Source: Schaalia odontolytica
GTDB taxonomy: Bacteria; Actinomycetota; Actinomycetes; Actinomycetales; Actinomycetaceae
Length of the DNA stretch: 32,000 nucleotides
NCBI RefSeq assembly: GCF_005696695.1
Contig: NZ_CP040006.1
Location: 1,470,001 to 1,502,000, forward strand
Direction of reading: 5' to 3'
The notes beneath the pieces were generated by a model, which was not told the origin of the DNA, did not search any database, and saw only the letters and a program-made list of their open reading frames with translations. A program made the translations under genes and the position numbers. Positions 23,965 to 28,316 of the stretch are shown in pieces. Positions within the stretch are counted from its first letter, which is position 1. Each line of letters starts with the position of its first letter.

Positions 23965-24357
23965 TTACTTCGCGGGGGTTCCAGCCTCGACAGTGCCGGT
24001 CTCAAGCGTGATGAAACCCGACTTGCCGGCGGGCACCATGCCGTTCGCCTTGGCCGCCTTCTCCAGTTCCGTCGGCGAGGCCTTACGGTCCAGCTCAGCG
24101 CGCATGGTCCACGACTGCGCCTCCAGTTCGTTGAGCACGAGCTGCTGCTCGCGGATCTCAAAGGAGGTCTGCGCCATGCGGGTGTTGAGCACCATCGAGG
24201 TCACCACGGACGCCAGAGCGACGACGACGAGGAGGGCCACGACGGCCATCAGGGAACGGCGCGGGCGGGTGCCCTGGACGAGACGAAGCTCGTGGACCTC
24301 GTCGCGGCGCAGCTCGGGGCGCGCTGCGGGACGTGCCTTCGCGGTTGCTGCACTCAT
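23965..24357 (-). CDS. ftsL: FtsL-like bitopic division protein
   Basis: 130 aa: basic N-terminus, one TM (LMAVVALLVVVALASVVTSMVL), then a coiled-coil-like segment. It sits in the conserved slot between rsmH and ftsI. ATG 24357 forms an ATGA overlap with the rsmH stop and follows GGAAGGA. The call is by position and architecture. Confidence 0.65.
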   Translation of the reverse strand: MSAATAKARPAARPELRRDEVHELRLVQGTRPRRSLMAVVALLVVVALASVVTSMVLNTRMAQTSFEIREQQLVLNELEAQSWTMRAELDRKASPTELEKAAKANGMVPAGKSGFITLETGTVEAGTPAK

Positions 24358-25361
24358 GCGAGGTCCTTCCATTCACGGATGAGCTCCGCGCCGCGCAGTC
24401 GCACGGAAGCGGATCGGGGATTGTGGTCTTGTTCGGCCTGGTCGGCCTTGTTTGCGCCCTTTGTCAGCAGGCGCAGGCTGGGAGCCATCTCATCGGGGAT
24501 GATCGGCAGTCCGGGAGGCGCTGCGGACGTGGAGCCGCGGCGCAGCACATCTTTGACTATTCGGTCTTCGAGGCTTTGGTAGGACTCCACGACGAGGCGC
24601 CCGCCGACCCTCAGACTGGACAGCGCCCGCGGAAGCGCCCGCTCCAAGATGGTCAACTCGTCGTTGACCGCAACGCGCAGCGCCTGGAACGTGCGTTTCG
24701 CCGGGTTGCCGCCCGTGCGCCTCGCAGGTGCCGGGATTGCCTCGCGAATGATGTCCACGAGCTCTCCTGTGCGAGTGATGGGGGCGTCGTCTCGGCGGCG
24801 GATGATGAGCCTGGCGATCCGGGGTGCAAACTTCTCTTCGCCGTAGGTGCGCAGGATACGGATCAGTTCGCCTTCCGAGGCGGTGGCCAGCAGGTCCGCC
24901 GCGCTCTGCCCGCTCGTCGCGTCCATTCGCATGTCAAGCGGAGCGTCCTTCGAGTAGGCGAAGCCGCGGTCGGCCTCGTCGAGCTGGAGGGATGACACTC
25001 CCAGGTCCATAAGAACGCCGTCCACGCGAGCGCCCGCACCGAGCTGCTCCTCAACGGCCACATCGATGTTGTCGTAGGTGGTGTGAACCGCGCGGAAACG
25101 CGTCCCGAAGCGCTCGAGGCGCGCCGAGGCCAACTCGATAGCCTGGGGGTCGCGGTCAATGCCAATGACGGTGAGCCCCTCGAAACGCTCGAGAGCTCCC
25201 TCCGTGTGCCCGCCCATGCCCAGCGTTCCATCCACGAGGACGGCACCGGGGCGCTCGATCGCCGGGGCGAGCATGTCGAGGCACTCGCGTAGCAGCACGG
25301 GGACGTGACGCTCGCTCGCGGGGCGCGACGAATCGCGCACCGACTCCGATGCATCGCGCAT
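24354..25361 (-). CDS. rsmH: 16S rRNA m4C1402 methyltransferase RsmH (MraW)
   Basis: HVPVLLRECLDML...VDGTLGMGGH...DLGVSSLQLD...SYQSLEDRIVK are RsmH motifs. ATG is preceded by AAAGGAGG. Confidence 0.96.
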   Translation of the reverse strand: MRDASESVRDSSRPASERHVPVLLRECLDMLAPAIERPGAVLVDGTLGMGGHTEGALERFEGLTVIGIDRDPQAIELASARLERFGTRFRAVHTTYDNIDVAVEEQLGAGARVDGVLMDLGVSSLQLDEADRGFAYSKDAPLDMRMDATSGQSAADLLATASEGELIRILRTYGEEKFAPRIARLIIRRRDDAPITRTGELVDIIREAIPAPARRTGGNPAKRTFQALRVAVNDELTILERALPRALSSLRVGGRLVVESYQSLEDRIVKDVLRRGSTSAAPPGLPIIPDEMAPSLRLLTKGANKADQAEQDHNPRSASVRLRGAELIREWKDLA

Positions 25362-25472
25362 GTCGCGCCTCCTTTACGTTTATCGCCTCGATCCGTCCAC
25401 CCAGGTCCCCCACCGTGCTCCGCCACCGGGGAAGTGATGTCGGAACAGCGGGCGGAGACCTGGACGTACGGG

Positions 25473-25904
25473 TCAGAACATCCCGGGAATAATCTCTTCT
25501 GCTGTATTGGAGAAGACCTCCTCCTGGACAGCGAGGTATTCGCGCCAGGCCGAGGCATCCCAGATTTCAGCTCGCGAGCCCGCGCCAATGACGGCGAGCT
25601 CACGACCCAGACCGGCGTATGCACGCAGGTCTGCGGGGACGCTAATGCGCCCCTGCTTGTCCGGGACCTCCTTATAGGCACCCGAGAGCATCACACGAAT
25701 CCAGTCACGCGCCTGCTTGGACGACAGGGGCGCGCGGCGCAGTTCCGCGGTCATGTTCTCGAACTCCGACGCAGGGAATGCGTAGATGCAGTGCTCTTGT
25801 CCGCGAGTGAGGACGATTCCGCCCTCCATGTCCTCGCGAAAGCGCGCGGGCAGGAACATGCGACCCTTGTCGTCGAGCTTGGGCTCGTACGTACCGAGGA
25901 ACAT
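25473..25904 (-). CDS. mraZ: Transcriptional regulator MraZ
   Basis: 143 aa, [23 protein letters not shown]... with the duplicated DxxGR motif (second copy [10 protein letters not shown]). First gene of the dcw cluster. Confidence 0.96.
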
Positions 25905-25933
25905 GTCACCGCCCTCCCCTGTTCGGAACTCTC

Positions 25934-25958
25934 CCCCACTTTAACCCACCAAACCCCA
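25934..25958 (-). promoter_or_regulatory. Candidate MraZ operator: three TGGGN direct repeats at 10-bp period
   Basis: In the mraZ sense the sequence reads TGGGG-TTTGG-TGGGT-TAAAG-TGGGG (25958-25934), ending 29 nt upstream of the mraZ ATG. The spacing and motif equal the E. coli MraZ operator architecture, which is three TGGGN repeats with 5-nt spacers between the promoter and mraZ. Confidence 0.6.
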
Positions 25959-26194
25959 TATTTACGCAGGAACTTACGGCGTGGCGCGAGATACATCGAG
26001 GAAAAATGGCGGAATTGCAGCGAAAAAATCAGGTGGAGAAAAGTGGGGAAATCTTGCACACACTCGGTGAGTCGCACCATCATGGACGACGGCTGTCAGA
26101 GACGATAACGAGATGCAAAACAGGTGCAATTCGTTGCTATTACAGCGTTTTCACGAGGCATGGGAGCGTTTGGAGGGCACCGGTGCCACTCTCG

Positions 26195-26432
26195 GGGAGG
26201 ACAGTGGGGAGGGAGGTGGGGAATCCCAGGGAGCGCAGTGGGGAGCACAGTGGGGAGCACAGTGGGGAGCACAGTGGGGAGCACAGTGGGGAGCACAGTG
26301 GGGAGCACAGTGGGGAGCGCAGTGGGGAGCGCAGTGGGGAGCGCAGTGGGGAGCGCAGTGGGGAGCGCAGTGGGGAGCGCAGTGGGGAGCGCAGTGGGGA
26401 GCGCAGTGGGGAGCGCAGTGGGGAGCGCAGTG
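26195..26432 (+). repeat. 12-bp tandem repeat array, 17 perfect copies plus about 3 degenerate copies
   Basis: GGGAGCRCAGTG is repeated head-to-tail from 26229 to 26432 (204 bp). R is G in unit 1, A in units 2-7 and G in units 8-17. Degenerate copies lie at 26195-26206 (GGGAGGACAGTG), 26207-26218 (GGGAGGGAGGTG) and 26219-26228. The array is intergenic. Confidence 0.97.
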
Positions 26433-26470
26433 AAGCGGGGCGAGCCGGCTAAACCGGCTCGCCCCGCTTC
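26432..26470 (-). terminator. Perfect 17-bp GC-rich stem-loop downstream of the DUF3040 gene
   Basis: GAAGCGGGGCGAGCCGG (26432-26448), loop CTAAA, CCGGCTCGCCCCGCTTC (26454-26470). It starts 18 nt after the stop at 26489 and has no U-tract on either strand. It directly abuts the last repeat unit. Confidence 0.6.
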
Positions 26471-26488
26471 ATCAGTCGGATGGAACGC

Positions 26489-26905
26489 CTAGTCGTTGTC
26501 TCGACGGTCGTCCCAGCGGCGTTCCTGATCCTGGATGAAGGAACTCCATCCGCTGCTCTTGTCTACGCCACGCGCGGACGATTCGTCGGCCGACTCTGAC
26601 GACGATGCCCCCGGGCGCGACAGGGCGTAGAGGATACCGGCGACCGTCAGCGCGAAACCGGCGACCCCCAGGAGGATCGAGAGGATCGAGTAGCCCAGCG
26701 ACACGGCAGCGACCAGGACGACCATGCCCAGGACCGCTCCGGTCAGGCCCAGCGCGATGCGACGCGGCGCGCGCGGTCCGTGAGCCGGCTCGGGGTCCTC
26801 TTCGACCGCGGGGGCGGACATCTGGGAGGCCAACGCCGGGTCTTCCTCGCGCAGGGATGCTTCCATCTGCTCGAGGATCTTCTTCTCGTACTCGGTGAGA
26901 GCCAT
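26489..26905 (-). CDS. DUF3040-family small membrane protein
   Basis: MALTEYEKKILEQMEASLREEDPALASQM is the DUF3040 N-terminal helix, followed by two TM segments. A conserved actinobacterial neighbour of mraZ. Confidence 0.8.
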   Translation of the reverse strand: MALTEYEKKILEQMEASLREEDPALASQMSAPAVEEDPEPAHGPRAPRRIALGLTGAVLGMVVLVAAVSLGYSILSILLGVAGFALTVAGILYALSRPGASSSESADESSARGVDKSSGWSSFIQDQERRWDDRRDND

Positions 26906-26972
26906 TGGGTGCCCCTTTCGGACGGTAGTGTCCTCAGCTTAGCGCGTGTGACATGCCGGAGACGAACTGGCC

Positions 26973-28316
26973 TTACAGGAGCGTTCCCTGTGTGGGCTCT
27001 TCGTTTCCGGGGTCATTCCCCTGCCCGTGCGCCGAAGCGTTGGAACCGGCGGGAGGAGCCCCGGCCTCGTTGCTATCCCCACCGAAGGAGCGCCTGCCCG
27101 GCACCTTCTTACCCAGGAGCGTGGCAGGGGCGAGGGCGCCCGCGCCGAACTTGTCACGGATCTGATCCATCGCGCGCTCGGAGGCGGCGGGCCTCTCATC
27201 GCGGTCGAGCGTGACGGCGACGCCGCCCGAGCGCGCCTGCAGCCCCTCTACGCGCACGCCGAAGAGCCGCACTCCCCCGATCGGCATGTTCTCGCGGGCA
27301 AACAGGCCCTGTGCCGCCTGCGCAATATCGCGCCCCGTATCGGTGGGGGCCACGAGGCTCACGCTGCGTGTGATCGTATGAAAATCGGTGCCGCGCATCT
27401 TGATGCCCACAGTCCACCCCACAACCCCTCCGGCGCGCAGCCTGCGGGCGCAGTCGTGCGAGGCCGCCAGGATGAAGTCTTCAATGTCGGCCCGCGAGCG
27501 CACGTCCTCCTCGAAGGTTCGTTCCATGCCGACCGATTTCTCCGCGCGTGTGGGGGCGACGGGACGCGGGTCGATGCCCCACGACAGGTCGTGCAAGTGG
27601 TGGGCTGAGGCGACGCCAAGGAGCTTGGTGAGGCGTGTGAGTGGGGCGTTGGCCAGGTCCCCGATCGTGTCGATCCCCTCCCGATCGAGGATCGCCGCGG
27701 TCTTTCCCCCGACTCCCCACAGTGCTCCAACGGGCAGTCCGTGGAGGAAGTCGACCGTGGCCGCCTGCGGGATGAGGAGCAGGCCGTCGGGCTTGGCGTG
27801 CGAGGAGGCAATTTTGGCAACCGACTTGGTGGCGGCGATTCCGACGGATGCGGGCAGCCCGACGGCTTCGCGGATACGCGTACGAATGAGTCGAGCGATC
27901 CGGGTGGGCGATCCCAGCCTGCGGCGCGCCCCGGAGACGTCGAGGAAGGCCTCGTCGATGGAGACCTGCTCGAGGTCGGGGGTAACGGTGGCGAGAATCG
28001 CCATCACCTGGCGGGAGTAGCGTTGATAGAGGCCGTGGTTGCCGGGGATGAAAGCGGCGCCTGGGCACAGGGCGCGGGCGCGCGAGGTGGGCATGCCGGC
28101 GCGCACGCCCAGGGCACGGGCCTCGTAGGTGGCGGAAGTGACGACTCCGCGCCCGGACGTGCCGCCCACGATGATGGGGCGGCCGACGAGGCTCGGGTCC
28201 TCGCGCATTTCGACCTGCGCGAAGAAGGAGTCCATGTCGACGTGCAGGATCGGCGTGGCGCTATCGTCCGATCCCCAGTCGCGTTTGGCGCGCGCGTCCC
28301 TGGGAGCGTTTGACAT
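26973..28316 (-). CDS. dinB: Y-family DNA polymerase IV
   Basis: ILHVDMDSFFAQVEMREDPSLVGRPIIVGG...GVVTSATYEARALGVRAGMP...SIDEAFLDV are Y-family catalytic motifs. ATG is preceded by AGGAGG with 4-nt spacing. Confidence 0.93.
   Translation of the reverse strand: MSNAPRDARAKRDWGSDDSATPILHVDMDSFFAQVEMREDPSLVGRPIIVGGTSGRGVVTSATYEARALGVRAGMPTSRARALCPGAAFIPGNHGLYQRYSRQVMAILATVTPDLEQVSIDEAFLDVSGARRRLGSPTRIARLIRTRIREAVGLPASVGIAATKSVAKIASSHAKPDGLLLIPQAATVDFLHGLPVGALWGVGGKTAAILDREGIDTIGDLANAPLTRLTKLLGVASAHHLHDLSWGIDPRPVAPTRAEKSVGMERTFEEDVRSRADIEDFILAASHDCARRLRAGGVVGWTVGIKMRGTDFHTITRSVSLVAPTDTGRDIAQAAQGLFARENMPIGGVRLFGVRVEGLQARSGGVAVTLDRDERPAASERAMDQIRDKFGAGALAPATLLGKKVPGRRSFGGDSNEAGAPPAGSNASAHGQGNDPGNEEPTQGTLL

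Follow-up and report, generated by a model that had tools for sequence, protein, structure and literature searches.

Upstream of mraZ in Schaalia odontolytica lies a perfect tandem array of a 12-bp unit, which raises the question of what such a tract is, to which neighboring gene it belongs, and whether it may take part in the control of that gene. Few bacterial regulators are as conserved as MraZ, although what it does in the cell is not well understood, and the MraZ operators characterized so far are all fixed sets of three or four boxes at the promoter. The array was analyzed in a window of 32,000 nucleotides (the whole stretch of DNA under study), where it lies among the following features.

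24354-25361, minus strand: rsmH
25473-25904, minus strand: mraZ, encoding a canonical MraZ
~26193-26228, plus strand: three decayed units, GGGGAGGACAGT, GGGGAGGGAGGT and GGGGAATCCCAG, at the mraZ-proximal end of the array
26229-26432, plus strand: perfect 12-bp array GGGAGCRCAGTG, 17 units without indels, read as non-coding
26431-26471, minus strand: perfect hairpin with 18-nt arms (26431-26448 and 26454-26471) and a 5-nt loop
26489-26905, minus strand: DUF3040 membrane-protein gene (Pfam PF11239, 67 bits), the usual upstream neighbor of mraZ
26973-28316, minus strand: dinB

Sequence and Layout of the Array

An earlier note on this DNA, made from the sequence alone, had described 17 copies of the unit without a single indel. 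Tandem Repeats Finder confirmed this description, reporting at 26229-26432 a period of 12 with 17.0 copies, 98% matches, 0% indels, a score of 366, and the consensus GGGAGCGCAGTG. When the tract was cut into 12-mers, one GGGAGCGCAGTG was followed by six GGGAGCACAGTG and ten GGGAGCGCAGTG, which reproduces exactly the block pattern G1/A6/G10 given in that note. The variable position forms 3 runs as compared with 8.8 expected (P = 0.0014), and this non-random clustering of variants is a signature of local duplication and not of scattered mutation. Read in the direction of mraZ, the unit is CACTG[C/T]GCTCCC. The three decayed copies said to lie on the mraZ-proximal side were likewise found; GGGGAGGACAGT and GGGGAGGGAGGT have kept the hexamer GTGGGG, and GGGGAATCCCAG belongs to a 'CCCTGGGATT' type that is itself amplified in sister species. 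The GC content is 72% in the array, 53% in the 288-bp spacer to the mraZ ATG, and 66% in the window. The array, inverted relative to mraZ, occupies the stretch about 325-530 bp before the ATG of that gene.

The placement of the array between the DUF3040 hairpin and mraZ was as the earlier note had it, with one reservation on the label of terminator that it gave to the hairpin. The hairpin starts 17 nt past the DUF3040 stop codon and folds at -37.9 kcal/mol; no T/U run follows it on either strand, and an intrinsic-terminator scan made no call there, so that "terminator" is an assumption. It is possible that the hairpin is a factor-dependent or "I-shaped" terminator. The scan of 25400-27000 returned 0 sigma-70 promoters and 0 intrinsic terminators, and promoter positions in this region are for that reason inferred from conservation only. 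An E-value search of 25000-27500 against Rfam gave no match over the array. The same search listed a sub-threshold mraW RNA between mraZ and rsmH, as well as chance matches to miRNA and lncRNA families.

Coding Potential

Stop codons are absent from all six frames inside the array, which explains the four ORF-track entries that cross it, as the earlier note had argued. The open frames also leave room for the view that the array encodes a repeat protein, such as the (GSAV)n product of the ORF at 26124-26492 on the plus strand, which would be a small glycine-zipper membrane peptide. This ORF matched Pfam Gly-zipper_Omp with 42.7 bits, and gene callers have annotated such ORFs in 4 of the 12 fetched assemblies that carry gene calls. 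However, the Pfam match is what GxxxG periodicity gives with every translation of the form (G-x-x-x)n; moreover, the ORF starts in the poorly conserved spacer and runs through the hairpin, and conspecific strains have only 2-5 units. We found that the arrays at the same place in sister species are built from 22-, 23-, 34-, 35- and 46-bp units, as represented by 15.3 copies of the 23-bp unit CCTCCACCTTCCTCCCCTGGGTT at the locus L030, and units of these lengths make a common reading frame impossible. Neither the frame nor the peptide repeat is conserved in homologues. The coding reading was rejected on these grounds, the Pfam match being an artefact of periodicity, and we leave it next to no probability. 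Judged from these comparisons, the tract is non-coding, which bears out the reading given before.

Copy Number Variation among Strains and Species

The locus was found in identical form on contig LLVT01000003.1 of GCA_001462375.1. The record LLVT00000000 is Actinomyces (now Schaalia) odontolyticus subsp. actinosynbacter XH001, which was assembled from 2x300-bp Illumina reads. Across strains, species representatives and metagenome contigs, the number of strict units ranged from 2 to 24, and in Schaalia meyeri DSM 20733 the perfect copies number 24.8. An identical MraZ is encoded in ten contigs, in nine of which the tract directly follows the DUF3040 hairpin, whereas in L002, the tenth, the two are separated by other genes. 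The tract has 2-8 units in these nine contigs, and among contigs with identical MraZ the unit number was 2-17. Mobile DNA has been inserted into the array in some strains, and the locus has been retained.

A comparison of 315-bp flanks gave 12 versus 4 units at 99.7% identity and 5 versus 2 units at 99.4% identity. Since the unit counts differ despite near-identical flanks, the copy number outpaces point substitution. These differences of 3-8 units at 99.4-99.7% flank identity, together with the range of 2-24 units in relatives, agree with the slipped-strand expansion proposed in the earlier note and with an origin by local duplication or slippage; its suggestion to count units across relatives had left room for an identical number in all of them, and this is not what was found. 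Draft and metagenome counts carry some uncertainty, since short-read drafts break or gap in the array: the L008 scaffold has an N gap in the array, the short-read contig L092, which encodes the same DUF3040 protein, breaks inside it, and a 240-bp tract is barely spannable by 2x300-bp Illumina reads. A bacterial VNTR is defined by a head-to-tail unit of about 10 bp or more and by copy-number polymorphism among strains. With its period of 12, its 17.0 copies and 0 indels, and with 2-17 units in contigs of identical MraZ (counts that drafts may get wrong), the tract is a bacterial VNTR in this sense.

Linkage of the Array to mraZ

At five loci (L002, L021, L025, L030 and L035), 1.7-2.8 kb separate DUF3040 from mraZ, and in all five the distance from the array to the mraZ ATG is still about 290-330 bp. 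In L002 and L021, which were read at the sequence level, the DUF3040 hairpin has no array behind it. In L002, the only one of the five with gene calls, the insert holds two opposite-strand genes between DUF3040 and mraZ. The array was also considered as a terminator accessory of DUF3040, a role that was not supported, since it remains beside mraZ at loci where other DNA parts the two genes. As judged from these rearranged loci, the array belongs to the mraZ control region and not to the 3' end of DUF3040, and the tie to mraZ that the earlier note had supposed holds across insertions of 1.7-2.8 kb.

A metagenome scan for four successive copies of CTCCCCAC-N4 gave 81 loci. All 13 of the loci with a TGTG/TGCG spacer were the mraZ-upstream locus. 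The remaining loci have other spacers and GC contents, and mraZ is absent from them where the flank is long enough; we conclude that the arrays without the TGTG/TGCG spacer are unrelated minisatellites. As arrays of the CTCCCCAC core occur in unrelated metagenome contexts, the core alone, even when arrayed, does not identify an mraZ locus.

MraZ Boxes in the Window

MraZ boxes in Mycoplasma and other bacteria read GTG(G/T), have a 10-bp period and typically number three per promoter (PMC12957436; bioRxiv 10.1101/2022.02.09.479790), and in B. subtilis the motif GTGG[A/T]G occurs three times, with 4 nt between the copies. On the plus strand, each unit junction of the array reads GTGGGG-AGCRCA, in which GTGGGG is a published MraZ box, inverted with respect to mraZ. 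Box-like elements also lie between the array and mraZ, as follows.

25934-25959, minus strand: proximal canonical MraZ operator, ATGGGG-N4-GTGGGT-N4-GTGGGG, three sense boxes with a 10-bp period
26033-26048, plus strand: middle inverted box pair, GTGGAG-AAAA-GTGGGG, an exact match with 10-bp spacing
26050-26058, minus strand: putative extended -10 element, TGcAAGATT, directly upstream of the middle pair

The proximal operator, 30-55 nt upstream of the mraZ ATG, agrees with the published MraZ boxes (PMC12957436; bioRxiv 10.1101/2022.02.09.479790). The middle pair lies about 130-145 nt upstream of the ATG, and both it and the proximal boxes rank with the best-conserved non-coding blocks there; a 15-nt segment of the middle pair is 87% identical to segments of the array. 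The sequence TGcAAGATT at 26050-26058 is a putative extended -10 promoter element, conserved in sister species as TGnTAGATT, TGnTAACTT or TGnAAGATT.

Hexamer pairs were counted in the window. With at most one mismatch, GTGGRG-N6-GTGGRG had 20 matches in the window as compared with 0.8 expected, and 17 of the 20 were in the array and the decayed units. Under the same threshold, GTGGRG-N4-GTGGRG had 21 matches as compared with 1.2 expected, 17 of them in the array and decayed units. Exact matches to the N6 pair numbered 15 in the perfect array and one in the decayed units. The N4 register, that is, the 10-bp spacing, is present in the array only with one mismatch at T (GGGGAG-N4-GTGGGG), which recurs at every unit.

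An MraZ operator would be expected to have 3-4 direct repeats with a 10-bp period, each with GTG(G/T) or GTGG[A/T/G]G as its core box, to overlie the promoter or transcription start site (TSS) in the orientation of mraZ, and to be conserved at the same relative place in related species. The array has the core box in each repeat, and its boxes are conserved at the same relative place in related species. However, its perfect boxes lie 12 bp apart, and it is inverted and 325-530 bp upstream; since the array departs in period, position and orientation, we did not file it as a canonical MraZ operator.

Comparative Architecture across Species

The mraZ loci were fetched from 80 species genomes, and 71 of them, each with at least 600 bp upstream, were used. 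The boxes fell into zones, given below as distances upstream of the ATG.

20-79 nt, proximal zone: peak of sense GTGG, present at 40-59 nt in 71 of 71 loci; GTGG[A/G]G pairs at 10 bp, sense in 46 loci, inverted in 0
120-159 nt, middle zone: peak of inverted CCAC, present at 140-159 nt in 61 of 71 loci; GTGG[A/G]G pairs at 10 bp, inverted in 49 of 71 loci, sense in 0
220-420 nt, distal zone: inverted CCAC several-fold enriched over sense GTGG; GTGG[A/G]G pairs in the 71 loci, inverted at 10 bp in 27, at 12 bp in 21, at 13 bp in 4 and at 9 or 11 bp in 0, sense in 0

In the 71 species loci, sense 10-bp pairs were thus confined to the proximal zone. The distal 12-bp pairs also occur in two Leifsonia species that have no arrays. 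The base next to the distal GTGG core is G or A in 85% of cases and the one after it is G in 81%, like in the proximal and middle boxes, as compared with a background in flanking coding DNA where both following bases fit in only 15% of GTGG. The distal element consists of 1-4 boxes in distant Actinomycetaceae, Microbacteriaceae and Kocuria (for example, cctCCACtttcctCCAC), and expansion into arrays was found only in the clade of S. odontolytica, S. meyeri and "Pauljensenia". The conservation of the distal boxes and the restriction of arrays to one clade argue that the minisatellite is a lineage-specific amplification of a conserved distal box element that is constrained in orientation and spacing. 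A literature search on MraZ in Actinobacteria or Schaalia found no report of MraZ sites in those groups, and the literature searches brought up neither a hypervariable MraZ-box array nor a tripartite inverted/sense architecture in Actinomycetota.

The middle and proximal boxes could also pair with each other in the RNA of the 5' leader. For this pairing, RNAalifold returned -4.7 kcal/mol over 37 species; all of the box-to-box pairs were invariant, with no covariation, so that they give no information for or against it. The DNA-box reading is the simpler one for these two elements.

A Possible Landing Pad for MraZ

Residues 1-130 of the Schaalia MraZ align without gaps to Mycoplasma genitalium MraZ (PDB 9qlr), with K13, R15 and R86 conserved. 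In cryo-EM complexes, these three residues read the GTG(G/T) box, and their conservation suggests that MraZ probably binds the array units. Cooperative binding of MraZ to repeated boxes, binding at high concentration to boxes of lengthened spacing, and fibre-like assemblies on concatenated 4-box DNA have been reported (PMC12957436; bioRxiv 10.1101/2022.02.09.479790), and according to the structural paper an MraZ octamer can occupy a single box. With this spacing tolerance, with single-box octamers and with fibres, a long array could hold many MraZ subunits.

We favor, with a probability of about 0.5, the explanation that the tract is a strain-variable non-coding minisatellite derived from an expanded distal inverted MraZ-box element and likely serves MraZ as a multi-site landing pad. 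The array would have arisen from the distal element by slipped-strand or unequal-exchange amplification, and MraZ of Schaalia would bind its units, so that MraZ oligomers may land about 325-530 bp upstream of the start codon. The array might then concentrate MraZ near the promoter, as an auxiliary operator or by a loop, or alternatively sequester MraZ as a decoy in cis. In either case the unit number could shift the set-point of MraZ autoregulation and of dcw expression, in either direction.

Several observations speak against MraZ binding. The perfect boxes have a 12-bp and not the canonical 10-bp spacing, and inverted boxes hundreds of bp from the start codon are unlike every characterized MraZ operator. 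Many units of sister species have CTCCCCGG or CTCCCTGG in place of CTCCCCAC, so that the most constant part of the unit is CTCC(C) and not the GTG contacted by MraZ. Among the metagenome arrays, 12-bp arrays of the CTCCCCAC core occur with other spacers, and at least several of these have ample flank and no mraZ. In addition, conspecific strains with only 2 units suggest that the array length is not strongly constrained.

The main rival to the landing-pad explanation is neutral expansion, which we regard as possible though on the unlikely side: the ancestral 2-4 distal boxes may be functional, and the long array would be a by-product of slippage in which the unit number has no effect. Once two or three similar 12-bp units adjoin, replication slippage would go on lengthening and shortening the tract. 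No copy number between 2 and 24 is obviously preferred, and strains of one species differ widely in it although their flanks are almost the same; the unit structure turns over between species, with periods of 12, 22, 23, 34, 35 and 46 bp; degenerate non-box units (CTCCCCGG) have been amplified as readily as box units; and the insertion of mobile DNA into the array in some strains, with the locus kept, is also what neutrality would allow. On the other hand, arrays or multi-box clusters are found at the same place clade-wide, while the DUF3040 protein has diverged to about 72% identity, and the array is still attached to mraZ after rearrangements. The constant orientation and the quantized spacings suggest a constraint on at least the box, its orientation and its spacing.

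Two further readings, both weaker than neutral expansion, assign a role to the nucleic acid itself. The array could be a Rho-loading (rut-like) insulator, whose C-rich RNA of about 200 nt, following a hairpin without a U run, would stop read-through from DUF3040 before the mraZ promoter. A rut site needs at least about 80 nt of C-rich, G-poor and weakly structured RNA, and the array provides this: C makes up 55% and G 17% of the sense RNA, whose minimum free energy is -53.6 kcal/mol, where random 204-nt pieces taken from the window give -83 +/- 10 kcal/mol, and all unit variants of sister species are C-rich and G-poor on the mraZ-sense strand. The co-directional unit upstream of the array is DUF3040 in the window, whereas L002, L021 and L025 have other DNA between the two. 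In these three loci, mraZ has kept the array despite the different upstream DNA, and the genes called there in L002 run on the other strand. The distal boxes of Microbacteriaceae are found upstream of a canonical terminator with a U tract. Strict 10- or 12-bp spacing of a hexamer is, moreover, not a property of rut sites, and some units contain the self-complementary CCCCGGGG, all of which makes Rho loading distinctly improbable.

Less probable still is the formation of a G-quadruplex or i-motif, by which the 17 GGGG tracts of the plus strand, the template for transcription in the direction of mraZ, would modulate transcription or replication. The mean G4Hunter score over the array is 1.36, which places it among the few long high-scoring stretches of the window, and a G4 has been reported in the G-rich MraZ-box region of the S. 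aureus mraZ promoter (PMC11796246). However, a canonical G4 has at least four G tracts of at least 3 with loops of 1-7 nt, and the loops here are of 8 nt, though the G4Hunter score leaves a long-loop G4 conceivable; in the 23-bp unit of L030 only a single G4 tract is found beside GG runs, so that the G4 potential is not conserved; and the G-richness is an automatic by-product of GTGGGG boxes. We consider this reading very improbable.

A more far-reaching form of the landing-pad explanation, which is speculative and which we hold to be unlikely, is that the array is a fast-evolving "MraZ sponge" or filament-nucleation site, in which up to about 25 boxes in cis would recruit MraZ oligomers and slippage would reset dcw expression, making the tract a contingency locus for cell size and morphology in oral Schaalia, XH001, the host strain of TM7x, among them. 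If so, the tripartite architecture of inverted and sense boxes would be the general actinobacterial form of the MraZ operator.

Comparison with Known Systems

Mycobacterial MIRU-VNTR elements consist of 40-100 bp units dispersed at many loci, and they are not known to serve the gene beside them as transcription-factor sites. The array resembles them as a head-to-tail repeat with a unit longer than 10 bp in actinobacterial intergenic DNA, polymorphic among strains and with variants arranged in blocks; it differs from them in its 12-bp unit, which in the data examined (MraZ-anchored loci of isolate genomes and the metagenome scan) is confined to one locus and carries the box of a neighboring regulator. 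In Haemophilus influenzae, upstream 7-bp repeats of variable length set the expression level of hmw1A and hmw2A. Like these, the array is an upstream tandem tract whose unit number varies among isolates and which could grade expression, whereas its unit is longer, it lies far upstream, and the proposed effect is through regulator binding instead of spacing or transcript effects. The DnaA-box cluster datA and the iteron and incA arrays of plasmids are direct-repeat binding sites that set the free level of an oligomerizing DNA-binding protein. The likeness is that of a cluster of binding sites outside the primary operator or origin, with titration by the array being a conjecture, and the difference is that the proteins and sequences are unrelated and that those clusters are not hypervariable between strains.

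The array and the known MraZ operators share the core hexamer, tandem direct repeats and a place upstream of mraZ, and the cognate MraZ has K13, R15 and R86. The known operators have 3-4 boxes with a 10-bp period that overlap the promoter or TSS, and no length variation has been reported for them; the array has 17 boxes (2-25 in relatives) with a 12-bp period, is inverted, lies 325-530 bp upstream, and, unlike them, stands in addition to a canonical 3-box operator. The G4 of the S. aureus mraZ promoter is also a G-rich repeated tract upstream of mraZ with G4-forming potential; it is a short motif just downstream of the promoter, as compared with the 8-nt loops of the array, whose potential is not conserved in sister species (PMC11796246).

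Implications for MraZ and for Strain Typing

What is added here to the fixed operators is an array next to mraZ, hypervariable and made of 2-25 box-like units, and a conserved three-part box layout, sense in the proximal and inverted in the middle and distal elements, in Actinomycetaceae, Microbacteriaceae and Kocuria. Together, the array and the layout provide a natural allelic series for asking how MraZ dosage and higher-order assembly may act on the dcw operon. In the laboratory, the Saccharibacteria epibiont TM7x has strain XH001 as its host; infection by TM7x has been reported to change the division and shape of XH001 (PMC10768705), and RNA-seq has been published for this strain. The tract breaks short-read assemblies, and it could be a strain-typing marker for oral Schaalia.

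Box pairs and spacer upstream of mraZ

The conserved middle pair, an inverted MraZ-box pair at window 26033-26048, and the proximal operator, three sense boxes at 25934-25959, were found to form an inverted repeat of 17-21 nt, 81 nt apart, with 82-86% complementarity. The two together amount to a palindromic operator arrangement. A leader stem is a possible alternative explanation for the repeat, and RNAalifold gave no covariation support for pairing between the middle and proximal boxes.

Among the 71 species loci compared for box layout, distal pairs had a spacing of 10 or 12 bp, or 13 bp in four of the loci, and none had a spacing of 9 or 11 bp. In the distant family represented by Leifsonia (L081 and L082), inverted box pairs spaced 12 bp instead of 10 bp are also present, as simple two-box elements approximately 224-238 nt upstream of mraZ.

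The spacer between the 17-copy array and the middle pair is variable, except for a semi-conserved element at window 26123-26158, which reads, in the mraZ sense, CCTCGTGAAAACGCTGTAATAGCAACGAATTGCACC in the window and TGGTATTTCAATGA in sister species. This element could be a further promoter or binding site.

Insertions in and near the array

We found that the array is split in some strains by a non-coding insertion of approximately 1 kb that is rich in internal inverted repeats. Both of its borders show the unit CTCCCCGGG(G)ATTC, and the insertion may be a small mobile element targeting the repeat. In Actinomyces bouchesdurhonensis, two arrays are kept apart by a fragment related to it.

Array-splitting insertion or related fragment
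L103:11205-11895
L112:55-1060
L028, approximately 2265-2565, between its two arrays

A further insertion, of approximately 2.7 kb, separates the DUF3040 gene from the array (L002:372-2133, with an equivalent in L021 and L025). In L002 it carries two opposite-strand genes, DUF6318 among them, and in all three loci the array remains on the mraZ side.

Annotation and assembly records

An ORF encoding (GSAV)n at window 26124-26492 (+) crosses the array and matches Pfam Gly-zipper_Omp with 42.7 bits against a gathering score of 25, a match due purely to GxxxG periodicity. Gene calls were available for 12 of the assemblies retrieved, and 4 of these have an ORF annotated across the array; such calls are an annotation trap.

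The array interior is a break point or N gap in short-read assemblies (contig end in L092; L008:2509-2604), and unit counts from draft or metagenome assemblies are therefore of lower confidence. Schaalia-type MraZ (84-100% identity) and a matching locus layout were also found in L012, L020 and L052, from assemblies titled Sanguibacter keddieii 250_SKED, Xylanimonas cellulosilytica 352_XCEL and Trueperella pyogenes 331_TPYO, records that are probably mislabelled.

In the mraZ-rsmH intergenic region, window 25383-25477 (-) matched the mraW RNA motif of Rfam (RF01746) below threshold: the hit scored 41.4 bits (E = 1.2e-6), where the gathering score is 50.
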